In this document: one piece after another, positions 37,222 through 49,237 of the stretch
Layout: every line of letters begins with the position of its first letter
How positions within the stretch are numbered: the first letter of the stretch is position 1
Assembly (NCBI RefSeq): GCF_050920415.1
Contig: NZ_CP169309.1
From: Escherichia coli
GTDB lineage: Bacteria; Pseudomonadota; Gammaproteobacteria; Enterobacterales; Enterobacteriaceae
Direction: 5' to 3' (one strand)
DNA length: 64,000 nucleotides
Program-made: the position numbers and the translations under genes
Notes under the pieces: model-generated
Seen by the model: only the letters and a program-made list of their open reading frames with translations
Database searches by the model: none
What the model was told of the DNA's origin: nothing

Positions 37222-40200
37222 TTACGCCTCCTCTTCATGACGGACAAAGCGACTTTTGGTCCACAATGCCAGGCGGTCGAACAGCAGATAAATCACCGGC
37301 GTGGTGAACAGCGTCAGCACCTGGCTAACAATCAGGCCGCCGACCATGCCGATGCCTAACGGACGACGTAGTTCCGCGCCGACTCCGGTGCTCAACATCA
37401 GCGGCAGCGCGCCAAGCAGTGCCGCCAGAGTGGTCATCAGGATCGGACGAAAACGCAGCAAACAGGCCTGGTAAATTGCATCGCGCGGCGACATGCCTTG
37501 CTCGCGCTCGGCAGCCAGCGCGAAGTCGATCATCATGATGGCGTTTTTCTTCACAATACCGATCAGCAAAATAATGCCGATGATGGCGATCACATCCAGC
37601 TCACTTCCGGCAATCATTAGCGCCAGCAGTGCGCCAACACCTGCCGTTGGCAACGTCGAGAGAATGGTGATCGGGTGGATAAAGCTCTCGTACAGAATGC
37701 CGAGCACGATATACATCGCCACCACCGCTGCGACAATCAGCCAGACAGTGCTGCCCAATGCCGACTGGAAGGCGAGGGTGCTGCCCTGGAATTGTGTGGT
37801 GATATCCACCGGCAGATTCAGTGTCTTTTCGGTATCCATAATTGCCTGCACCGCATCACCGAGAGAATAGTTATCCGGCACGTTAAAGGAGATGGTCGTT
37901 ACCGGGAACTGATCCAGATGGTTGATGGAGAGCGGCGCAAAACGCTGCTCAATTTTGGCAATTGAGCTTAACGGCACCACGCCACCGTCGCTGCTGGTCA
38001 GGCGAATGGTATCCAGCGCCGCAAGCCCTGGGGTATTTTCGGTATTGTGCTCCAGCACCACGCGATACTGGTTAGCCTGAGTATAAATAGTGGAAATCAG
38101 CCGCTGACCAAACGCGTTGTACAGGGCGTTATCGACGTCCGCCATGCTGATCCCCAGACGGCTGGCGCTGTCGCGATCAACATTGACATACGCCACCAGC
38201 CCTTTGTCCTGCCAATCGCTGGAGACATCAGAAAGCTGCGGCAGCTGCTGGAGTTTTTCCACGAGTTGCGGCACCCAGGTACTGAGCGCATCCAGCGATG
38301 TGGCCTGCAAGGTAAACTGGTACTGGGTGCGGCTGACCTGAGTATCGATAGTCAGATCCTGCGTTGGTTGCAGGAAGAGATCGACACCCGGCACTTTATC
38401 GACCGCCGATTGCAGACGGGAGATAACTTTTTGCACCCGGTCATCACGTTCATCCAACGGTTTGAGGTTGATCTGTAAACGCGCACTGTTCAGCGACGGG
38501 TTAGTGCCATCAACGCCAACAAACGAGGTCAGACTTTGCACTGCCGGATCCTGCAAAATCACATCCGCGACCTGGCGTTGCCGCTGGGCCATATTGGCAA
38601 AGGAGCTGGACTGCGGTGCCTGCAAAGTGCCCTGAATAATGCCGTTGTCCTGTACCGGGAAGAAACCTTTCGGAATGAACACCCACAATAGAACGCTCAG
38701 CAGCAGCGTGCTGAGCGCCACGCTTAAGGTCAGCCACGGATGATTCAGCACTTTCGCCAGTCCACGACCATAGGCGGCAATTATCCTGTCGAACATTTTT
38801 TCCGAGGCCCGGGAGAAGCGGTTCTGTTTACGCAGCGACTCCTGGCTGAGCATCCGCGCGCACATCATCGGTGTCAGGGTCAGCGACACCACGGCTGAGA
38901 TCAAAATCGCTACCGCCAGGGTAATGGCAAATTCGCGGAACAGTCGCCCGACGATATCGCCCATAAACAGCAGCGGGATCAGCACTGCAATCAGTGAGAA
39001 GGTCAGCGAGATTATGGTAAAGCCGATTTCACCCGCGCCCTTGAGCGCCGCCGCCAACGGTTTTTCGCCTTTTTCGATATAGCGGGAAATGTTTTCGATC
39101 ACCACGATGGCGTCATCGACCACGAATCCGGTGGCGATGGTTAACGCCATCAGCGTCAGGTTATTGATTGAAAAATCGAGAAACACCATAACCGCAAAGG
39201 TGCCAATTAACGACAGCGGCACCGCGACGCCAGGAATGATGGTCGCCGGAATATTGCGCAGAAACAGGTAGATAATCATGACTACCAGCGCGATAGCCAT
39301 CATCAGCTCAAACTGGGTATCGTCGACCGATGCGCGGATATTGGTAGTGCGATCGGAAAGTACCGTCACCTTCACCGATTTCGGCAGACTCTCGGTGAGC
39401 TGTGGCAGCATCTGCCGGATGCTGTCGGCGGTAGAGATAATGTTAGCACCGGGCTGGCGCTGAACATTCATCACAATGGCCTGTTCTTTGTTCGCCCATG
39501 CGCCAAGCCAACTGTTTTCTGCGCCTTGTTCAACGGTTGCGACATCACCAAGACGAATCGGCGCGCCGTTCTGGTAGGCGATAATCAACTGGCGATATTC
39601 ATCTGCAGATTGCATCTGGTCGTTCGCGGAAAGCGTGACCGCGCGGGAAGGGCCGTCGAGGCTACCTTTAGCCGAGTTAACGTTAGCGCCGGTAATGGCG
39701 GTGCGCACGGTTTCGCTGGTCAGGCCGAGGGCGGCAATCGCCTGGGCGTTAAGTTTGACGCGAACAGCCGGACGCTGACCGCCGGAAAGCGTCACCAGCC
39801 CGACGCCGGAAATCTGCGAGATCTTCTGCGCGACGCGGGTTTCCACCATGTCTTCCACTTGCGTCATCGGCATGGCGGTTGATGTGACGGCAAGCGTCAT
39901 GATCGGCGGATCTGCCGGGTTCACTTTGCTGTAAACCGGCGGGTTAGGCAGATCGCTCGGCAACAAGTTGGTCGCAGCGTTAATCGCGGCCTGCACTTCC
40001 TGCTCGGCGACATCCAGCGGTAATGTTAGCTGGAACTGCAAAGTGATAACTGACGCGCCGCCGGAACTTTGCGACGACATCTGTTTCAGGCCGGACATCT
40101 GCCCGAACTGGCGTTCGAGCGGTGCGGTAACGGCAGAGGTCATGACATCCGGGCTGGCACCTGGGTAGAGGGTGACCACCTGAATGGTTGGATAGTCCAC

Positions 40201-40344
40201 TTCCGGCAGCGCCGAAACGGGCAGGGCACGATAACCGATAATCCCGGCGAGTAAGATCGCCACCATCAGCAGCGTGGTGGCGACAGGACGCATAATAAAC
40301 AGGCGCGACGGGCCGCCTGTGCTGCTCGGGGGTAACACCTGCAT
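37222..40344 (-). CDS. mdtB: RND multidrug efflux permease MdtB
   Basis: 1040 aa RND transporter; paralogous to mdtC. Confidence 0.95.
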
Positions 40345-41591
40345 CAGGAGCGTGCTCCTTTTTTCACGTATTCGCGGCTGGTGGCTTTCTCTTCCGAAGT
40401 GGTGGCGCTTTGAGCTTCAACCACTTCCACTTTCGCCCCTTCGGTCAGACGATCAATGCCATCCGTCACTACGCGGTCGCCTGCAGAAATACCTGCGCGG
40501 ATCACCACTTTCTGACTGTCCTGAATGCCCGGCGTCACCAGATGTTTGCTGACTTTGTTTTCGCTATTCAGCACCCAGACAAAATGGCCTTCGTTGCCCA
40601 TTTGCAGGGCGGCGGTGGGGATCACCACGGCGTTTTGTTCGGTGTCGACTAACATGCGAGCGTTAACAAACTGATTGGGAAACAGCGCATCATCCTGATT
40701 ATTAAAGCGTGCTTTCACTTTAATCGTACCGGTAGTGGCATCGATTTGGTTATCGAGACTTAACAGCGTGCCTTCACTTAATTTCTTCGAGTTGGTGCGA
40801 TCCCAGGCTTCAACAACCAGCGGTTTTCCGGCTTTTTGCGCCTGTACTACGGTAGTGATATCGCTTTCCGGCAGGGTAAAGAGCAAATCGATAGGATGCG
40901 TCTGGGTGATCACCACAATCCCGGTGGTATCACCACTGGAGATTTGGTTACCAACATCAACCTGCTTGAGACCAACGCGACCATCGACTGGTGCGGTGAT
41001 GCGGCTCCAGTCGAGTTGCAGCTGCGCACTGGCGACGCTCGCTTCATCAGCCTTAATGGTACCTTCGGTTTCACTGACCAGCGCCTGTTGGGCATCCAAT
41101 TCCTGACGGGAGACGAGATTGGTTTTTGCCAGTTGCTGATAACGCGCTAAATCACGGCGGGCGTTGGCTAGCGTGGCTTTATCTTTTGCCAGTTGCCCCT
41201 GAGCTTGTGCTAATGCAACTTTGAACTGGCTGGGGTCAATTTCTGCCAGTAAATCGCCTGCTTTGACCTGCTGACCCTCCTGGAAATGTAATGCCATCAG
41301 TTGACCATCTACGCGACTGCGCACCGTAACGGTGTTAGCAGCGGTAATCGTACCAAGCCCGGTGAGGTAACGCGGAACCGCCTGTTCCACGGCAGTTGCT
41401 GCCTGAACCGGGGCCAATGGGCCGGAACGCATACCACGGCGGCCACCGGCTGGCGACTGCTGTGCTTGCTTCGTCGCACCTGGCGCTGCGCTCTGGGATT
41501 CATTGCGGCCTTGCCAGAACCAGAAAGCGGCGATGGCGGCGATAACCACCACGATTACGATTACCCAACGGGATTTATAACTGCCTTTCAT
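40344..41591 (-). CDS. mdtA: RND efflux membrane fusion protein MdtA
   Basis: Internal start [16 protein letters not shown] within ORF 40344..41738 gives 415 aa. Confidence 0.92.
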
Positions 41592-41821
41592 CGTTAAGAG
41601 TTTCTCTTCCTGAAACGTTTCGCGGAATGATACTAGTGTAGCCAGCCAATAAGGGAGAAAAATGGAGGAATTATGAAACACTGTCGGGAATCGTCTGAAT
41701 GACGGGCACTTTTGCGAGCACGCATCCAGTAATAACACAGGAAACTATTTTATCTACGCGTTAGCGATAGACTGCATTAAGGGCAAAAGGAGGTAGGCCG
41801 ACGATTTCAGCGGGACGCTGA

Positions 41822-41962
41822 AACGGGAAAGCCCCTCCCGAGGAAGGGGCCTTAAATAAGGAAAGGGTCATGATGAAGTGGATCATCATCGTGGTGCTCT
41901 TAGTCGTTAGCTACCCAGCTTACTAAGACTACCAGGGCGGGGGAAACCCCGCTCTACCCTCA
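41822..41962 (-). ncRNA. Sib-family antisense sRNA (antitoxin), copy 1; ends approximate
   Basis: Minus strand has TTGACA (41992-41997), 17 bp spacer and a weak -10 (TACTTT); transcript would fully overlap the ibs ORF and end at a GC-rich hairpin + U tract near 41822. Confidence 0.6.
41869..41925 (+). CDS. Ibs-family type I toxin, 18 aa hydrophobic peptide (MMKWIIIVVLLVVSYPAY)
   Basis: ATGATGAAG start 8 nt after AAAGGG RBS; hydrophobic 18-residue peptide; below the ORF-track size cutoff. Confidence 0.8.
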
Positions 41963-42150
41963 CTCCTGAAAGTATGCCTTCACAATCAGATTGTCAATCC
42001 GCAGGCTTTGTAGTCTGCGATCCTGCCAGCAAATATTCTTTGCGAGACGTTACGCAATAATCACAGATGAAACTATTTTATCTACGCGTTAGCGATAGAC
42101 TGCATTCAGGGCAAAAGGAGGTAGGCCGCCGATTTCAGCGGGACGCTGAA

Positions 42151-42291
42151 ACGGGAAAGCCCCTCCCGAGGAAGGGGCCTTAAATAAGGAAAGGGTCATG
42201 ATGAAGATACTCATCATCGTGGTGCTCTTAGTCATTAGCTTACCGGCTTACTAAGACTACCAGGGCGGGGGAAACCCCGCTCTACCCTCAC
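42151..42291 (-). ncRNA. Sib-family antisense sRNA, copy 2; ends approximate
   Basis: Same promoter and terminator elements as copy 1, shifted by the repeat period. Confidence 0.6.
42198..42254 (+). CDS. Ibs-family type I toxin, 18 aa (MMKILIIVVLLVISLPAY)
   Basis: Same architecture as copy 1, 329 bp downstream. Confidence 0.8.
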   Translation: MMKILIIVVLLVISLPAY

Positions 42292-42478
42292 TCCTGAAAG
42301 TATGCCTTCACAATCAGATTGTCAATCCGCAGGCTTTGTAGTCTGCGATCCTGCCAGCAAATATTCTTTGCGAGACGTTACGCAATAATCACATGTGAAA
42401 CTATTTTATCTGCAAGTTAGCGATAGACTGCTTGCATGGCGAAAGGAGGTAGGCCGCCGATTTCAGCGGGACGCTGAA

Positions 42479-42625
42479 ACGGGAAAGCCCCTCCCGAGGA
42501 AGGGGCCTTAAATAAGGAAAGGGTCATGATGAAGCTACTCATCATCGTGGTGCTCTTAGTTATTAGCTGGCCAGCTTACTAAGACTACCAGGGCGGGGGA
42601 AACCCCGCTCTACCCTCACTCCTGA
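42479..42625 (-). ncRNA. Sib-family antisense sRNA, copy 3; ends approximate, promoter region diverged
   Basis: TTGACA -35 retained, but the spacer and -10 differ from copies 1 and 2. Confidence 0.5.
42526..42582 (+). CDS. Ibs-family type I toxin, 18 aa (MMKLLIIVVLLVISWPAY)
   Basis: Same architecture; third copy. Confidence 0.8.
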   Translation: MMKLLIIVVLLVISWPAY

Positions 42626-42799
42626 AGTTATGTTACTCCACCCTTATTGTCAATCTGTAAGTCCACGTTCTTGCGGGGCGAATAGCAAAACCCTCTGCGC
42701 TTATGGGCCGAATTCTGAAAGTTGCTTTGCCTGCTCTTATTTCATTATTGCAGTCGGTATGATACCGGACCTCAATAATTCTCTAAGAAAGGATTTCTT

Positions 42800-43459
42800 A
42801 TGAGCGAACAAATCACGTTTGCCACCAGCGATTTTGCCAGTAACCCGGAACCACGTTGCCCCTGCATTTTGCTGTTGGATGTTTCTGGTTCGATGAGTGG
42901 TAGACCTATTAATGAACTTAACGCCGGATTGGTTACCTTTCGCGATGAGCTGCTTGCCGATTCGCTGGCCTTAAAAAGAGTGGAACTCGGTATTGTGACG
43001 TTCGGCCCGGTGCATGTGGAACAACCATTTACCAGCGCCGCTAATTTTTTCCCGCCCATCCTGTTTGCCCAGGGCGATACACCAATGGGGGCCGCCATTA
43101 CCAAAGCCCTGAATATGGTTGAGGAGCGCAAACGTGAGTATCGCGCCAATGGTATTTCCTATTATCGTCCGTGGATTTTCCTGATTACCGATGGCGCACC
43201 AACCGATGAGTGGCAGGCTGCTGCCAACAAGGTGTTTCAGGGGGAAGAAGATAAGAAGTTTGCCTTCTTTTCCATCGGTGTTCAGGGGGCGGATATGAAG
43301 ACGCTGGCCCAAATCAGCGTTCGTCAGCCTTTGCCTCTTCAAGGATTACAATTCCGCGAACTGTTTAGCTGGTTATCCAGTTCGCTGCGTTCGGTTTCCC
43401 GCTCCACGCCGGGAATGGAAGTTGTACTGGAAGCGCCAAAAGGCTGGACGTCAGTGTGA
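42800..43459 (+). CDS. yegL: von Willebrand factor A (vWA) domain protein
   Basis: 219 aa; MIDAS-like DxSxS motif ([11 protein letters not shown]) plus downstream T and D residues (ITDGAPTD). Confidence 0.88.
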
Positions 43460-44217
43460 GCTGGCGTCTGGTTTATGCATCAGCCGTTGGAACGTCGCAC
43501 ATCAGCGCTGACTTGTCTTGCCAGGATGCCTGCCAGATGCAGGTTGTCTGGCTAAATGACCAGCAGCCATTATTGACGGTATTTGTCGCTGATGGCGCAG
43601 GCAGCGTTTCGCAGGGTGGCGAAGGTGCGACGCTTGCCGTCAATGAAGCGATGGCTTATATGATGCAAAAAGTGCAGGGCGGGGAATTGGGGCTTAATGA
43701 TGTCCTCGCAACGGATATTGTGCTGACCGTTCGTCAGCGACTTTTTGCCGAGGCGGAAGCTAAAGAATTAGCAGTTCGTGATTTTGCCTGCACGTTTCTG
43801 GGACTGATTTCATCGCCTAACGGCACATTGATTATGCAGATTGGCGATGGCGGCGTGGTGGTAGATTTGGGTCACGATCTGCAATTGCCGCTCACGCCGA
43901 TGGTGGGTGAATATGCCAACATGACGCATTTCATTACCGATGAAGATGCCGTTTCCAGACTTGAAACTTTCACCAGCACTGAGCGTGCGCATAGAGTTGC
44001 AGCATTTACGGATGGTATTCAGAGACTGGCGTTAAATATGCTGGATAATTCTCCGCATGTGCCTTTCTTTACCCCGTTTTTCAATGGACTGGCGTCAGCA
44101 ACGCAGGAACAACTCGATTTATTACCTGAATTGTTAAAGCAGTTTTTGTCCAGCCCAGCGGTAAACGAGCGTACCGATGATGATAAAACGTTAGCACTGG
44201 CTATGTGGACAGAATGA
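43456..44217 (+). CDS. yegK: PP2C-family Ser/Thr protein phosphatase
   Basis: 253 aa; GTG start overlaps the yegL stop (GTGA), suggesting translational coupling; PP2C-like acidic motifs (VADGAGS, QIGDGG). Confidence 0.85.
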
Positions 44218-44281
44218 ACATCGCATGGCGGTTGAAGACAACGGTTCAACCGCCAGTTTAAGCAATCAATATAATGGCTGG

Positions 44282-44743
44282 CTAGCGAACTAATTTTGCT
44301 CTTAGCTCGTCGGCTTCTTCTTTTGGATAGGTGACCAATAAAGGATCAATGGTATAACCACCGTAAATTTTATCCCCGCGCGTATACATCCAGTCTGAAA
44401 TATCTTCTTTCTTGATTTTCCACTCCTGGCCATATTCTACGTTTGTAACAATACCAGGGTCATTGCTTATTATACCAATAAACATGCCGTTAGAATAAGT
44501 GACATCCGTGAGCCAGAAATGCTCGGTTTCTCCGCGATCGGTTATCGGGGCTTTGACTGCGAAAGTATCAGCATCTTTTTTATTCATAACTTCGATGAAT
44601 TGATCGGTTTCTTTCCGCGCATGTTTAATCGCGTCAGACATCGCCTTTTTATCATAACCTCCTGTCACTAACGTATCCGAAATCTCACTAAAGCCCGCGG
44701 TAGTAAAAAATAGCAGACTCAACATAAGTAATATCTTTTTCAT
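44282..44743 (-). CDS. yegJ: Secreted DUF2314 protein
   Basis: 153 aa; signal peptide MKKILLMLSLLFFTTAGFS; AT-rich gene on the opposite strand between yegK and yegI. Confidence 0.8.
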   Translation of the reverse strand: MKKILLMLSLLFFTTAGFSEISDTLVTGGYDKKAMSDAIKHARKETDQFIEVMNKKDADTFAVKAPITDRGETEHFWLTDVTYSNGMFIGIISNDPGIVTNVEYGQEWKIKKEDISDWMYTRGDKIYGGYTIDPLLVTYPKEEADELRAKLVR

Positions 44744-44943
44744 TTTTTCTCCAGAATCCCTGTGTAGTAAAAGTTAGCAAAAAACCTGTGGAAGTGAATC
44801 ATTATCAGGTTGGAATTGAATTGTATCCTGATGAAATTGCATTATCATTTTTATTCTTGAGTGGGACTCTTCCAATATAGAAATAATTATAATGGGCAGT
44901 GTTATTATTCATTGAAATATAATATGACTGCCCTTGAAACATT

Positions 44944-46890
44944 ATGAAGACAAATATAAAAGTATTTACATCGACAGGTGAATTGACCACTCTCGGGCGT
45001 GAACTGGGCAAAGGCGGCGAAGGCGCGGTTTATGATATCGAGGAGTTTGTCGATAGCGTTGCCAAGATTTATCACACACCTCCACCCGCCTTAAAACAGG
45101 ACAAACTTAGCTTTATGGCTGCGACAGCTGACGCGCAGTTGTTGAATTATGTCGCCTGGCCGCAGGCAACGCTTCATAGTGGACGAGGTGGGAAGGTTAT
45201 CGGTTTTATGATGCCAAAAGTTTCTGGTAAAGAACCGATTCATATGATCTATAGCCCGGCACATCGTCGTCAGAGTTACCCTCATTGCGCGTGGGATTTT
45301 CTCCTCTATGTTGCGCGCAATATTGCTTCATCTTTTGCTACGGTTCACGAGCACGGGCACGTCGTGGGTGACGTAAACCAGAACAGCTTTATGGTAGGCC
45401 GTGACAGCAAAGTGGTGTTGATTGATAGCGACTCCTTTCAGATTAACGCCACTGGAACGCTGCATTTATGCGAAGTCGGCGTGTCGCATTTTACGCCGCC
45501 AGAGCTGCAAACCTTGCCATCATTTGTCGGCTTTGAACGCACCGCGAATCACGATAATTTTGGCCTTGCGTTGCTGATTTTTCACGTATTGTTTGGTGGG
45601 CGGCATCCTTATTCTGGTGTGCCGCTTATCTCTGAGGCGGGTAATGCGCTGGAGACGGATATTGCCCATTTTCGTTATGCCTACGCGTCAGACAATCAGA
45701 GACGTGGCTTAAAACCGCCGCCACGATCGATTCCGCTATCGATGTTACCGGGTGATGTTGCAGCCATGTTTCAGCAGGCATTCACGGAAAGTGGCGTGGC
45801 AACCGGGCGTCCGACGGCAAAAGCGTGGGTTGCGGCACTTGATTTACTACGCCAACAATTAAAGAAATGTACCGTTTCAGCAATGCATGTTTACCCTTGT
45901 CATTTAACCGACTGCCCGTGGTGTGCGCTGGATAATCAAGGCGTTATCTATTTTATTGATCTCGGCGAAGAGGTCATTACCACCAGCGGTGATTTTGTGC
46001 TGGCGAAAGTCTGGGCGATGGTGATGGCGTCAGTAGCACCACCAGCATTGCAACTGCCATTACCCGATCATTTCCAACCAGCTGGCAGGCCGCTTCCTTT
46101 AGGCCTGTTACGGCGTGAATACATTATTCTGATTGAGATCACACTGTCAGCGTTATCGCTGTTGCTTTGCGGTCTTCAGGCAGAACCGCGTTATATTATT
46201 CTGGTGCCTGTGCTGGCGGCTATCTGGATTATTGGCAGTCTGACAAGCAAAGCTTACAAAGCAGAAGTCCAGCACCGTCGTGAGGTATTTAATCGTGCGA
46301 AAATGGACTATGACCATTTAGTCAGCCAGATCCAACAGTTGGGCGGGTTGGAAGGTTTTATCGCCAAACGGACGATGCTCGAAAAAATGAAGGACGAAAT
46401 TCTCGGTTTACCGGAAGAAGAAAAGCGCGCGGTGGCAGCACTTCACGACACCGCAAGGGAACGGCAGAAGCAGAAGTTTCTGGAGGGATTTTTTATTGAT
46501 GTTGCCTCTATTCCCGGCGTTGGCCCTGCGCGTAAAGCGGCGTTACGGTCTTTTGGTATTGAAACAGCAGCAGATGTTACCCGTCGTGGTGTTAAGCAAG
46601 TGAAAGGGTTTGGTGATCATCTGACACAGGCGGTTATCGACTGGAAAGCGAGTTGCGAACGCCGTTTTGTGTTCAGGCCGAATGAAGCGGTAACGCCAGC
46701 AGACAGACAAGCGGTAATGGCGAAAATGACCGCCAAACGACATCGGCTGGAATCGGCGCTGACTGTCGGCGCGACAGAGTTGCAGCGATTCCGCCTTCAT
46801 GCTCCTGCACGGACCATGCCGTTGATGGAACCATTACGTCAGGCAGCGGAGAAACTGGCTCAGGCGCAGGCTGATTTAAGCCGCTGCTGA
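44944..46890 (+). CDS. yegI: Atypical Hanks-like Ser/Thr protein kinase with membrane segment and C-terminal HhH-like domain
   Basis: 648 aa; Gly-rich loop LGKGGEGAVYD, VAKIYH lysine, degenerate catalytic loop VGDVNQNSF, DSDSF, TPPE; hydrophobic stretch around residues 390-440; C-terminal IPGVGPARKAALRSFGIETAADV. Confidence 0.85.
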   Translation: MKTNIKVFTSTGELTTLGRELGKGGEGAVYDIEEFVDSVAKIYHTPPPALKQDKLSFMAATADAQLLNYVAWPQATLHSGRGGKVIGFMMPKVSGKEPIHMIYSPAHRRQSYPHCAWDFLLYVARNIASSFATVHEHGHVVGDVNQNSFMVGRDSKVVLIDSDSFQINATGTLHLCEVGVSHFTPPELQTLPSFVGFERTANHDNFGLALLIFHVLFGGRHPYSGVPLISEAGNALETDIAHFRYAYASDNQRRGLKPPPRSIPLSMLPGDVAAMFQQAFTESGVATGRPTAKAWVAALDLLRQQLKKCTVSAMHVYPCHLTDCPWCALDNQGVIYFIDLGEEVITTSGDFVLAKVWAMVMASVAPPALQLPLPDHFQPAGRPLPLGLLRREYIILIEITLSALSLLLCGLQAEPRYIILVPVLAAIWIIGSLTSKAYKAEVQHRREVFNRAKMDYDHLVSQIQQLGGLEGFIAKRTMLEKMKDEILGLPEEEKRAVAALHDTARERQKQKFLEGFFIDVASIPGVGPARKAALRSFGIETAADVTRRGVKQVKGFGDHLTQAVIDWKASCERRFVFRPNEAVTPADRQAVMAKMTAKRHRLESALTVGATELQRFRLHAPARTMPLMEPLRQAAEKLAQAQADLSRC

Positions 46891-46902
46891 GCCATTTTTC
46901 AA

Positions 46903-48255
46903 TTAACGAAACACCACTTCTGCCCAACGTGCCAGCCCGGCGGTAACCGACCCAAAGTCATCGCCGCCTGCAATCGGAATGCCCGGCAACTGTTCTGCCA
47001 GCGCTTTTTTAATCAGCGGCGATCGGGCGCTACCACCAGTCAGATAGATGACATCCGGTTTTTCCTGGGCGTTATCCAGCGCCAGTTGCACCTGTTCCAG
47101 AATTCGCGCCAGCGGCTGACTGAGGGCGTTTTCCAGCCCTTGTTGGCTAATCAGTGTTGCCAGCTCATCGCTGATAAACGGCAGCGATGCGCGGGTTTCC
47201 GCTGCGCTGGAAAGGGCGATTTTGCTCTCTTCCGCGCTGCGTACCAGCCGATAACTTAAACGCTGACGCCAGACTTTCTGTAACAGGGCCACTTTCTCCG
47301 GTTCGCGGGCGTCGCGTACCAGATCGTTAAGCAGACGACCGTTAGCACTACTGTAGAAATCACTCTGCGCAGGTACATCGTTGATGGCAACTGCATTCCA
47401 CCACGGCAGGATCGGCAGGGCGATGCCTTTTTCAGTTTCGCCACCCATGCCCAGTAATGGCATCAGATTTTTAAACGCCAGTGCGATATCCAGATCGTTA
47501 CCGCCAATACGGCAACCACTGTGACCCAGCAGGCTGGCTTCACGATCGAGGCGCGAACGCCACTGTGGCCCCATTAGCAGTAAAGAACAGTCAGTCGTAC
47601 CACCGCCGATATCCACCACCAGTACGCGTTTTTCTTCCTGCAAGGTGGCTTCGTAATCCAGCCCAGCCGCCACCGGCTCGTACTGGAATACCACGTCCTT
47701 AAACCCGGCACGCTTCGCTGCACGCTCCAGAATCCCTTGTGCCTGGGCGTTTGCCTCATCGCCGCCCAGCCCCTGGAAGTTGATCGGGCGACCAATCACC
47801 GCCTGGGTAATCGCTTCTGGCAGCTGTGTCTGGGCCTGCTTGCGAATGTGCAACATCATTGCGCAGACCAGATCCTCAAACAGCGCCACCTGCTGCGGTT
47901 TTAAGCCGCTGGCACCGAGGAACGATTTTGGTGATTTAACAAACCACACTTCTTCCGGATCATCAATGTACTGCGCCAGTGAGGAAAGGCCGAACTGCAC
48001 GCTTTTCGCCGTGACATCGATATCTTCTTCGCGGTTATAACGAATCGCCCGACGTAATAGCGCCTGCGTTTCATTGTCGTCTGCCGGAACATCATGATGG
48101 CGGTACAGCCATTCGCTTACCGCTTCACGCGTTGGCGCGCAAAGCATTGAAGGCAGCAGCGTGCTGTCGTTTTCCATTTTCAGTAATTGCGGTTTACCGT
48201 CACGCATGACCGCCACTGAACAGTTTGCTGTACCGTAATCAAAACCAATAAACAC
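46903..48255 (-). CDS. yegD: Hsp70-family actin-like ATPase YegD
   Basis: ORF 46903..48318; likely GTG start at 48255 (MFIGFDYGTANCSVAV) gives 450 aa; DnaK-like phosphate loops (VVDIGGGTTD). Confidence 0.85.
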   Translation of the reverse strand: MFIGFDYGTANCSVAVMRDGKPQLLKMENDSTLLPSMLCAPTREAVSEWLYRHHDVPADDNETQALLRRAIRYNREEDIDVTAKSVQFGLSSLAQYIDDPEEVWFVKSPKSFLGASGLKPQQVALFEDLVCAMMLHIRKQAQTQLPEAITQAVIGRPINFQGLGGDEANAQAQGILERAAKRAGFKDVVFQYEPVAAGLDYEATLQEEKRVLVVDIGGGTTDCSLLLMGPQWRSRLDREASLLGHSGCRIGGNDLDIALAFKNLMPLLGMGGETEKGIALPILPWWNAVAINDVPAQSDFYSSANGRLLNDLVRDAREPEKVALLQKVWRQRLSYRLVRSAEESKIALSSAAETRASLPFISDELATLISQQGLENALSQPLARILEQVQLALDNAQEKPDVIYLTGGSARSPLIKKALAEQLPGIPIAGGDDFGSVTAGLARWAEVVFR

Positions 48256-48333
48256 GAAATAATCCCCATGCCGGTGAAGAAGGGGCGTGACTTTAGCGAA
48301 ATGTTGCCGTCGCGACAACCGGAATATGAAAGC

Positions 48334-48341
48334 AAAGCGCA
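48334..48341 (+). promoter_or_regulatory. Ada box (AAAGCGCA) in alkA promoter
   Basis: AAAGCAAAGCGCA about 50 bp upstream of the alkA start; alkA is a known Ada regulon member. Confidence 0.55.
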
Positions 48342-48388
48342 GCGTCTGAATAACGTTTATGCTGAAAGCGGATTAACAAGGAGATGCG

Positions 48389-49237
48389 ATGTATACCCTG
48401 AACTGGCAGCCGCCGTATGACTGGTCGTGGATGTTGGGTTTTCTCGCCGCCCGCGCGGTGAGCGGTGTGGAAACGGTCGCTGACGATTTTTATGCCCGTA
48501 GTCTGGCGGTGGGCGAATATCGCGGCGTGGTGACTGCTATTCCGGATATAGCCAGCCATACTCTGCACATAAATTTAAGTGCAGGTTTAGAACCTGTTGC
48601 CGCTGAGTGTCTGGCGAAAATGAGCCGCCTGTTTGATCTGCAATGTCACCCGCAGATTGTTAACGGTGCGTTGGGCAAGTTAGGCGCGGCGCGGCCCGGA
48701 TTGCGTTTACCTGGTTGTGTTGATGCTTTTGAGCAGGGCGTGCGGGCGATTTTAGGCCAACTGGTGAGCGTGGCGATGGCGGCAAAATTGACCGCCAGAG
48801 TGGCACAGCTTTATGGCGAACGGCTGGATGATTTTCCGGAGTATGTCTGCTTCCCCACGCCTCAGCGGCTGGCTGCAGCCGACCCGCAGGCATTAAAAGC
48901 GTTAGGTATGCCGTTGAAACGGGCAGAGGCGCTGATTCATCTGGCAAATGCGGCGCTGGAGGGCACCTTACCAATGATAATACCGGGCGACGTAGAACAA
49001 GCGATGAAAAAACTGCAAACTTTTCCGGGTATCGGGCGCTGGACGGCGAATTATTTCGCCTTGCGCGGCTGGCAGGCGAAAGATGTTTTCCTGCCGGATG
49101 ATTATCTGATTAAACAGCGATTTCCGGGAATGACACCGGCACAAATCCGCCGATATGCCGAGCGCTGGAAGCCTTGGCGTTCTTATGCGCTGTTGCATAT
49201 CTGGTATACGGAAGGCTGGCAACCAGACGAAGCATGA
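48389..49237 (+). CDS. alkA: DNA-3-methyladenine glycosylase II
   Basis: 282 aa; HhH-GPD fold with FPGIGRWTANYFALRG. Confidence 0.93.
   Translation: MYTLNWQPPYDWSWMLGFLAARAVSGVETVADDFYARSLAVGEYRGVVTAIPDIASHTLHINLSAGLEPVAAECLAKMSRLFDLQCHPQIVNGALGKLGAARPGLRLPGCVDAFEQGVRAILGQLVSVAMAAKLTARVAQLYGERLDDFPEYVCFPTPQRLAAADPQALKALGMPLKRAEALIHLANAALEGTLPMIIPGDVEQAMKKLQTFPGIGRWTANYFALRGWQAKDVFLPDDYLIKQRFPGMTPAQIRRYAERWKPWRSYALLHIWYTEGWQPDEA

Follow-up and report, generated by a model that had tools for sequence, protein, structure and literature searches.

We analysed a 64,000-nt window of Escherichia coli DNA (the window being the whole stretch) and studied the locus at positions 42800–46890, where the genes yegL, pphC (also called yegK), yegJ and yegI code for a von Willebrand factor A (vWA) protein, a PP2C phosphatase, a DUF2314 protein and an atypical Hanks-type Ser/Thr kinase. 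An earlier reading made from the letters alone (the sequence-only reading) had placed these four genes together between the mdtA efflux operon and yegD, and had proposed that they form an under-characterised phospho-signalling or conflict module. The open reading frames (ORFs) were found exactly where that reading had them (Table 1), with mdtB/mdtA and yegD, all on the minus strand, as their neighbours to either side; the wider flanks hold mdtABC, ibs/sib, yegD, alkA and dgcE. Compared over positions 37222–49237, the window was 100% identical to RefSeq E. coli MFDS1022581, in which the four products are named 'vWA domain-containing protein', 'PphC', 'YegJ family protein' and 'protein kinase YegI'. 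Nucleotide identity to O157, BLR and most other E. coli was only ~93–95% (synonymous divergence, dS, ~0.2), and the window is therefore from a divergent Escherichia lineage.

Table 1. Coordinates of the genes, protein regions and neighbouring features. Positions are those of the window, except where a comparison locus (L) is named.
Feature	Position	Strand	Remarks
yegL	42800–43459	+	ORF, 219 aa; vWA protein; first gene of the triad
pphC (yegK)	43456–44217	+	ORF, 253 aa, GTG start; PP2C phosphatase
yegJ	44282–44743	-	ORF, 153 aa; DUF2314 protein; outside the conserved triad
yegI	44944–46890	+	ORF, 648 aa; atypical Hanks-type Ser/Thr kinase
YegI kinase domain, residues 1–305	44944–45858	+	Divergent Hanks type; K41, D143 (VGD), D161-S-D163 for DFG
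YegI CHCC motif, residues 306–331	45859–45936	+	Putative, zinc-ribbon-like; C309, H315, C324, C327
YegI transmembrane hairpin, residues 391–440	46114–46263	+	Two passes, short periplasmic loop
YegI C-terminal coiled-coil stalk, residues 441–648	46264–46890	+	Cytoplasmic; two helix-hairpin-helix (HhH) motifs (~517–573, nt 46492–46662), then return helix
AT-rich strain-variable insertion/replacement segment	44218–44994	.	777 bp, 38% GC; carries yegJ, the divergent promoter spacer and a new yegI 5′ end
Divergent yegJ/yegI promoter spacer	44744–44943	.	31% GC; yegJ promoter-like ATGATA-17-TACAAT at 44848 to 44820
ibs/Sib type I toxin-antitoxin array	41730–42626	-	Three tandem units, period 328 bp; Rfam SIB_RNA and Tandem Repeats Finder (TRF); directly upstream of yegL
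yegI pseudogenes	L004:8692–10617 and L005:4521–6447		Two Escherichia sp. genomes

Three of the four genes travel together. A scan with one genome per species gave 196 loci with YegI relatives, of which 80 were kept; with O157 and BLR added, the set comprised 82 loci, 76 of them outside Escherichia. YegL homologues were present at 78 of the 82 and PphC homologues at 81, and genes for the vWA protein, the PP2C phosphatase and the kinase followed one another in that order, on one strand and abutting or overlapping, at every locus with enough upstream DNA (a contig end lay too near upstream at L022, L042, L044 and L067, and L028 is disrupted). The order was kept in ~76 non-Escherichia genomes of bacteria and archaea, among them those of Gamma-, Beta- and Alphaproteobacteria, Paenibacillus, Bacillus, Clostridiales, Actinobacteria, Cyanobacteria, Acidobacteria, Synergistaceae, Pirellulales and the archaeon Methanoregula. 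All-against-all clustering of ~1070 neighbour ORFs brought up lineage-specific genes and antisense artefacts but no further gene with broad conservation, and a YegJ homologue was found at none of the 82 loci. In bacteria and archaea alike, the three triad genes are inherited together; of the neighbourhood as first drawn, yegL, pphC and yegI are co-conserved and yegJ is not.

The junctions between the genes show the same unit. The GTG start of pphC (43456–43458) overlaps the TGA stop of yegL (43457–43459) in a 4-nt GTGA at 43456–43459 (...tca gtg tga), as the sequence-only reading had observed in proposing coupled expression. In O157:H7 and BLR(DE3), yegL, pphC and yegI form a tight operon with 4-nt overlaps and without yegJ, and in this ancestral arrangement translational coupling extends to all three genes. 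When the window was aligned with the BLR, O157 and E. whittamii haplotypes, the segment at 44218–44994 was seen to stand where yegJ-less haplotypes hold ~41 bp with an ATGA overlap of pphC and yegI, and the replaced stretch to take in the first ~17 codons of yegI. The yegJ segment was present in 1898–1924 of 5426 complete E. coli genomes (~35%), and Rajagopalan and Dworkin had described yegJ as splitting pphC from yegI in K strains and not in B strains or O157. With no yegJ in 65% of complete E. coli genomes or at any of the 76 non-Escherichia loci, this gene does not belong to the triad; these sequence comparisons identify it as a probable later insertion that splits the operon. We are highly confident that the functional unit is a three-gene cassette of the TerY-P type, considered below, to which yegJ was added later.

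The composition of the locus agrees with this division. The GC content of yegL, pphC and yegI (50–52%) matches the window mean of 50.6% and is 3–6 points under that of the immediate flanks (54–57%), and the true AT-rich outlier is the yegJ segment together with the yegJ–yegI spacer. The earlier description of the whole block as AT-richer than its flanks is to be refined: it applies in full to the segment and the spacer, and to the triad genes only by those few points. A scan of the region for promoters and terminators gave counts not above those of shuffled sequence (promoters 8 vs 5.7±2.5; terminators 4 vs 5.3±2.6). Among the promoter candidates, only that of yegJ is backed by published hexamers: genomic SELEX (systematic evolution of ligands by exponential enrichment) in K-12 located RpoD binding within the yegI/yegJ spacer, together with an H-NS mark, and assigned ATGATA-17-TACAAT to yegJ (PMC3946193). 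Inside the insertion, at 44227–44254, the convergent pphC and yegJ are separated by a perfect hairpin with a 10-bp stem, GGCGGTTGAA-N8-TTCAACCGCC; having no T-run, it did not count as a canonical terminator.

YegJ itself matched Pfam DUF2314 (E=3.1e-25) and has a single N-terminal hydrophobic segment at residues 3–19 (MKKILLMLSLLFFTTAGFS) that resembles a signal peptide. The sequence-only reading had called the protein secreted and its gene oppositely oriented. The orientation is correct, and secretion would be predicted from this N-terminus; a 2026 paper treats YegJ as cytoplasmic (PMC13232886). The same paper reports that YegJ overexpression damages the envelope and raises yegD expression, and that YegJ contacts the N-terminal half of RNase E in a two-hybrid assay.

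Within E. coli the triad is part of the core genome. Among the 5426 complete genomes, yegL–pphC was found in 5407 and yegI in 5401 (99.5%), at a fixed site. The dS of the triad between the window and the O157 or BLR haplotypes was 0.16–0.27, the same as for mdtA, mdtB and yegD, which indicates long vertical residence. The ratio of nonsynonymous to synonymous divergence (dN/dS) was 0.06 for yegL, 0.10 for yegI and 0.18–0.26 for pphC, as compared with 0.015–0.03 for the efflux genes and yegD; all three triad genes are therefore under purifying selection, pphC being the most relaxed. It is the fastest-evolving gene of the triad within Escherichia, and its product is 90–91% identical in amino acid sequence to the B and O157 alleles. 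This faster evolution is consistent with published work in which PphC activity differed between K and B strains. yegI has become a pseudogene in two Escherichia sp. reference genomes, by a nonsense mutation at codon 456 in MOD1-EC7003 and by a frameshift after ~codon 513 in E1V33, and the triad is therefore dispensable in some lineages.

YegL matched Pfam VWA (E=1.2e-9). Its metal-ion-dependent adhesion site (MIDAS), which the sequence-only reading had recognised from a DxSxS motif, is complete: D27, S29, S31, T94 and D131, with DxSxS read as D27-V-S29-G-S31, are at least 95% conserved across 70 homologues, and an N-terminal NPEPRCPC motif is invariant among the homologues. YegL is the best-conserved protein of the triad, with a median identity of 65% to 70 non-Escherichia homologues vs 39% for PphC and 37% for YegI. 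A scan for hydrophobic segments found none in YegL or PphC. From its sequence we take YegL to be a cytosolic single-domain vWA protein of the TerY-like type; TerY1, TerY2 and TerY3 of the IncHI2 ter cluster match E. coli YegL at ~1e-22 and 77 YegL-family members at E=1e-17 to 1e-25.

PphC matched Pfam PP2C_2 (PF13672) over residues 11–220 (E=1.3e-50), in agreement with its earlier description as PP2C-like. D46-G-A-G-S, G130-D-G, D186-G and D241-D-D-K-T are invariant in 19 homologues; these include the metal-binding Asp residues D46, D131, D186 and D241–243. Published work renamed YegK as PphC and showed it to be a Mn2+-dependent PP2C that is inactivated by a D46N mutation and dephosphorylates YegI (Rajagopalan and Dworkin; 10.1101/303594).

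YegI from E. coli gave no match to Pfam Pkinase (PF00069) at E≤10, its sole Pfam match being HHH_5 (E=0.0025); the absence of a Pkinase match fits the label 'atypical' that the sequence-only reading had given it. The same Pkinase model recognises 21 of 30 YegI homologues at E≤0.001. The AlphaFold2 (AF2) model of full-length YegI has a mean predicted local distance difference test score (pLDDT) of 89, and a Foldseek comparison with the PDB matched its kinase domain at a probability of 1.00 to PknB, BRAF and Aurora B (template modelling score, TM, 0.66–0.71) and to ~1900 other kinase chains. K41, D143 and D161 are invariant in 30 homologues, and VGD and DSD take the places of HRD and DFG. YegI has been shown to be an active Ser/Thr kinase that prefers Mn2+, autophosphorylates on Ser153, Ser160 and Ser162, and is inactivated by K39D and D141N mutations (REL606 numbering; 10.1101/819920). 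It follows from this published biochemistry that the genes and both enzyme activities are known: YegI kinase activity, PphC phosphatase activity and the action of PphC on YegI were all published in 2018–2020 (Rajagopalan and Dworkin). The sequence-only reading's 'under-characterised' remains apt for the biological role, and not for these activities or for the effects of YegJ overexpression published in 2026. Likewise, its self-contained reversible phosphorylation switch holds for the vWA–PP2C–kinase trio with yegJ removed.

The rest of YegI is distinctive. The kinase domain is followed by C309-x5-H315-x8-C324-x2-C327, whose Cys and His residues never vary among 30 diverse homologues and show at least 95% conservation across 66. 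The AF2 model has short strands at 306–308 and 316–318 and then a helix. A Pfam search gave no zinc-ribbon match at this motif; from the residue pattern and the model it is a putative zinc ribbon. A disordered linker leads from the motif to the transmembrane hairpin, with hydrophobic segments at 392–413 and 415–437 and model helices at 391–411 and from 420 on. Topology mapping with PhoA-LacZ fusions had shown that YegI crosses the inner membrane twice, keeps its two termini in the cytoplasm and has a short periplasmic loop that lacks a sensor domain (10.1101/819920). This loop, and the lack of hydrophobic segments in YegL and PphC, give no support to the extracytoplasmic component that the sequence-only reading had proposed for the switch. 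Residues 436–648 are modelled as all-helical (pLDDT 93.5). Two HhH motifs can be read in the sequence, IPGVGPARKAAL and VKGFGDHLTQAV, followed by a return helix of 60 residues, and Pfam HHH_5 was found in 10 of 30 homologues at E≤0.1. A fold search of the 436–648 model against the PDB returned generic coiled coils only (best E=0.14), and nothing significant came from searching the PDB sequences with profiles of the C-terminal and full-length alignments. The HhH motifs suggest that this coiled-coil arm may bind DNA.

The closest known arrangement is the TerY-P triad of Anantharaman, Iyer and Aravind (2012; described here after PMC11090510 and PMC4978471). Its members are a vWA protein resembling TerY, a PP2C, and a Ser/Thr kinase that bears a zinc ribbon at its C-terminus. 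Restriction or DNA-processing genes are often linked to this triad, for which the role of a phospho-switch that senses metal was hypothesised. A version in which the kinase ends in an OB fold is a stand-alone anti-phage system (Gao et al. 2020, via PMC11090510). yegL–pphC–yegI resembles the TerY-P triad in its TerY-like vWA protein with an intact MIDAS, in its adjoining PP2C and kinase genes within one operon, in the putative zinc-ribbon-like Cys/His motif that follows the kinase domain, and in its occurrence as a mobile cassette, often near McrBC, GmrSD or type I restriction-modification (R-M) genes. It differs in having no linkage to Ter or CoCoNuT genes, in being a fixed core locus in Escherichia, and in the transmembrane hairpin, coiled-coil stalk and two HhH motifs added to YegI.

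As a validated comparator we used the 'TerY-p' locus of E. coli G3/10 (L093 7200–10459), which was found through the first 399 nt of the clone given in a supplementary table. RefSeq labels its three genes 'TerY-P anti-phage system...', and type I R-M genes follow. The PADLOC models TerY, PP2C and STK_OB recognised the three G3/10 proteins as a positive control (E=3.5e-173, 5.6e-108 and 9e-265; 358–878 bits). Comparison by hhalign and BLASTP indicated that YegL and the G3/10 vWA protein are homologous (hhalign probability 87%, E=4e-6). PphC had no detectable similarity to the G3/10 phosphatase (hhalign probability 0.2%), and YegI was only marginally similar to the G3/10 kinase (probability 2.7%, E=0.017), with a GD...N..MV...LIDxD core in common. 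Both loci have the gene order vWA (with a DxSGS MIDAS), phosphatase, kinase; both kinases have I-D-x-D in place of DFG, weakly match lanthipeptide-synthetase-type kinase models and carry a putative nucleic-acid-binding C-terminal module. In contrast to the OB fold at the end of the G3/10 kinase, YegI ends in its all-helical CHCC–transmembrane–coiled-coil–HhH arrangement. Membership of yegL–pphC–yegI in the validated TerY-P anti-phage family was considered and rejected: the PADLOC models fail on it and homology is confined to the vWA protein. Given its TerY-P architecture, the failure of the models and this vWA-only homology, yegL–pphC–yegI is therefore a separate, distant branch. Only 5 of the 5426 complete E. 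coli genomes contain the G3/10 locus, which lies beside an IS5-family element and type I R-M genes (L093:7200–14399), and some strains therefore carry two unrelated vWA–phosphatase–kinase triads.

YegI and PphC can also be set beside the PknB/PstP and PrkC/PrpC pairs. The YegI kinase fold matches PknB (TM ~0.7) with the catalytic Lys and Asp kept, and autophosphorylation in the activation loop is undone by an adjacent PP2C. YegI differs in lacking an extracellular PASTA sensor, in having VGD for HRD and DSD for DFG, in being missed by Pfam Pkinase, in its vWA partner (which would be obligate), and in a C-terminus predicted to be of a DNA-binding type.

Outside Escherichia the triad was often found among mobile or defence genes. 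We annotated the neighbours at eight non-Escherichia loci. GmrSD, type I R-M, SymE and BrnA genes lie within 10 kb of the Klebsiella spallanzanii triad; in Serratia the triad comes directly after a phage-type integrase and is followed by IS66 and an Rhs toxin. The Chromobacterium haemolyticum triad adjoins AbiH and a KAP NTPase inside a Tn7-like element, and that of Paenibacillus tianmuensis is cargo of a Tn7-like element. In Piscinibacter aquaticus it lies amid NYN, SLFN-type helicase, MazG-like, ScoMcrA, SNase, BrxR and JetB genes, and in Georgenia McrBC is 2.4 kb away with a PIN toxin-antitoxin pair close by. Megaplasmids of Pseudomonas (pQBR103 among them), Cupriavidus, Ralstonia and rhizobia also bear full-length relatives. 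The triad is absent from deposited phage genomes. In PHROGs v4, YegL, PphC and YegI each have a near-identical full-length family (phrog_28389, phrog_37072 and phrog_37888), all of 'unknown function'; these probably derive from over-extended prophage prediction.

Two further genes recurred beside the triad. DUF4236 genes adjoin YegI-type triads in unrelated taxa (L013, L021, L026, L057, L070, L072, L092:3962–5182 and L094:8589–8753; also L083:4838–6046), and in the IncHI2 ter cluster a DUF4236 gene adjoins terW and the TerY genes. DUF4236 may, by this recurrence, be a shared accessory partner of TerY-like vWA proteins. At several Burkholderiales loci the vWA gene is immediately preceded, on its own strand, by a gene of the staphylococcal nuclease (SNase) family (L091:7932–8474, L092:7917–8501, L007, L020 and L050), whose product could be a lineage-specific effector.

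In the window, the ibs/sib repeats that the sequence-only reading had placed at the border of the block proved to be three units. SIB_RNA of Rfam matched three times at 138–140 bits upstream of yegL, the ibs ORFs are readable, and TRF gave a period of 328, 2.7 copies and 95% matches. The number of units varies by strain, with three in O157 (L001) and four in BLR(DE3) (L002).

On balance we favour the view that yegL–pphC–yegI is an ancient, mobile TerY-P-type cassette that became fixed in the Escherichia core and that would act as a kinase switch triggered by DNA or phage. In this model PphC would hold YegI in an off state. YegL would be the obligate third partner, a sensor or adaptor whose metal site may engage an acidic or phosphorylated residue of YegI or of its target. 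The balance would then be tipped by a trigger, for which phage infection, or DNA at the membrane that is foreign or damaged, is the likeliest candidate; we favour this kind of trigger because YegI combines a membrane anchor with a predicted cytoplasmic coiled-coil/HhH DNA-binding module, an arm that would tie the kinase to nucleic acid at the membrane. Activated YegI would phosphorylate host or invader proteins, leading to growth arrest or to interference with the invader. The mobile or defence surroundings of the triad in other genera speak for this model, as does a link to DNA: YegL and YegI, when overproduced, were each scored DNA-damage-up (10.1101/354589). yegJ probably came in with the AT-rich, H-NS-marked insertion found in about one third of E. 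coli, including the window and K-12; this insertion uncouples yegI from yegL–pphC and gives it a promoter of its own.

The conflict or defence function itself is a more tentative proposition than this combined model, and we regard it as somewhat doubtful. The sequence-only reading had called a role in conflict plausible but unproven; that role stands as a reasonable hypothesis, and the envelope-sensing form with four genes does not. Several observations weigh against a defence switch. The PADLOC models that recognise the G3/10 proteins gave only E=0.012 for YegL with TerY and left PphC and YegI unmatched by PP2C and STK_OB, and PADLOC and NCBIfam together gave no significant defence-family match for YegL or PphC. 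Core status at a fixed site in 99.5% of E. coli is atypical for defence systems and fits housekeeping or stress signalling equally well. A panel of 27 markers for mobile genetic elements and defence was positive at 16 of 59 loci, a lower bound from a panel of low sensitivity with no background control; the eight hand-picked loci are suggestive of a defence context and are no enrichment test, and a Caballeronia locus and a metagenomic contig were not clearly defence contexts. The literature gives no phenotype, substrate or inducing condition for the triad, and robust expression was not detected in published work (10.1101/819920; PMC13232886; 10.1101/303594). In addition, the role of YegL, DNA binding by the HhH arm and zinc binding by the CHCC motif are predictions from sequence and model. 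A search of the literature found no published phage phenotype for yegL–pphC–yegI. The further-reaching proposal that the triad is a near-universal, fixed immune or abortive-infection system of E. coli missed by all current defence-finding programs, in which the coiled-coil/HhH arm of the membrane-anchored kinase would sense incoming or damaged DNA at the inner membrane, the MIDAS vWA protein and the PP2C would act as the gate, and yegJ would partly disable the K-12 type, seems to us unlikely. If it held, yegL–pphC–yegI would represent a distinct TerY-P branch that Tn7-like elements and islands had carried through bacteria and archaea.

The main rival is a domesticated housekeeping or stress switch that no longer serves conflict in Escherichia: an endogenous relay of Ser/Thr phosphorylation that would act on host substrates under rare conditions, for instance in stationary phase, in DNA repair or in nucleoid processes close to the membrane. 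The presence of the triad at one site in nearly all complete E. coli, a dS like that of flanking core genes, purifying selection on all three genes and the lack of matches to PADLOC and NCBIfam defence models are all as this rival would have them. The yegI transcript was weakly reported, in stationary phase (10.1101/819920), and overproduction of YegL and of YegI was in each case scored DNA-damage-up, that is, as raising DNA damage (10.1101/354589). However, outside Escherichia the spread of the triad is patchy and crosses domains, often on transposons, islands or plasmids or beside restriction or Abi genes. About one third of E. coli tolerate the disruption of the operon by yegJ, yegI has decayed in two Escherichia lineages and no phenotype is found in the literature. 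We consider a housekeeping switch possible, if unlikely.

A four-gene module for envelope sensing, in which the membrane kinase would receive an extracytoplasmic input from secreted YegJ, draws on the position of yegJ between pphC and yegI, on its signal-peptide-like N-terminus, and on the envelope perturbation and raised yegD expression upon YegJ overexpression (PMC13232886). Its distribution largely refutes this proposal: yegJ sits in an insertion of 38% GC that breaks pphC–yegI coupling, and it is absent from most E. coli and from every triad locus outside Escherichia, whereas the short periplasmic loop of YegI offers no sensor domain to receive such an input. We judge it improbable.

Slightly less probable still is the role originally put forward for TerY proteins of ter operons, the sensing of metal or tellurite stress: the MIDAS of YegL would sense metal and gate the kinase and phosphatase. 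YegL is homologous to TerY of the ter cluster, both enzymes prefer Mn2+ and the triad was first hypothesised as a metal-sensing switch. However, TerD-family genes adjoin the triad, within 10 kb, at 1 of 82 loci, an association rather than a strict requirement of the triad; the window region examined holds no ter genes, TerD included, and the IncHI2 ter cluster shows no kinase or PP2C beside its TerY genes.

The threonine-phosphorylation system PpkA/PppA of Pseudomonas type VI secretion (T6SS) comprises a kinase, a PP2C and a vWA domain, and the sequence-only reading had compared the locus with it. A PpkA/PppA/Fha-like module that has lost its secretion apparatus is contradicted by the data and very improbable, since the likeness lies in the domain list and not in family membership: in PpkA/PppA/Fha1 the vWA domain is the periplasmic part of the kinase whereas YegL is a cytosolic protein of its own, the E. 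coli locus has neither FHA nor T6SS genes at its flanks and none are conserved at the 76 other loci, YegI has its own CHCC, transmembrane and HhH architecture, and the TerY-P triad is much closer.

Few Ser/Thr kinase/phosphatase pairs are present in E. coli. Since yegL–pphC–yegI has TerY-P architecture yet is unrecognised by TerY-P models, neither its inclusion in defence catalogues nor its exclusion from them should be assumed. A three-gene cassette that crosses domains, its carriage with restriction, Abi and transposon genes elsewhere and its disrupted version in K-12 make the question of its function one that can now be tested.

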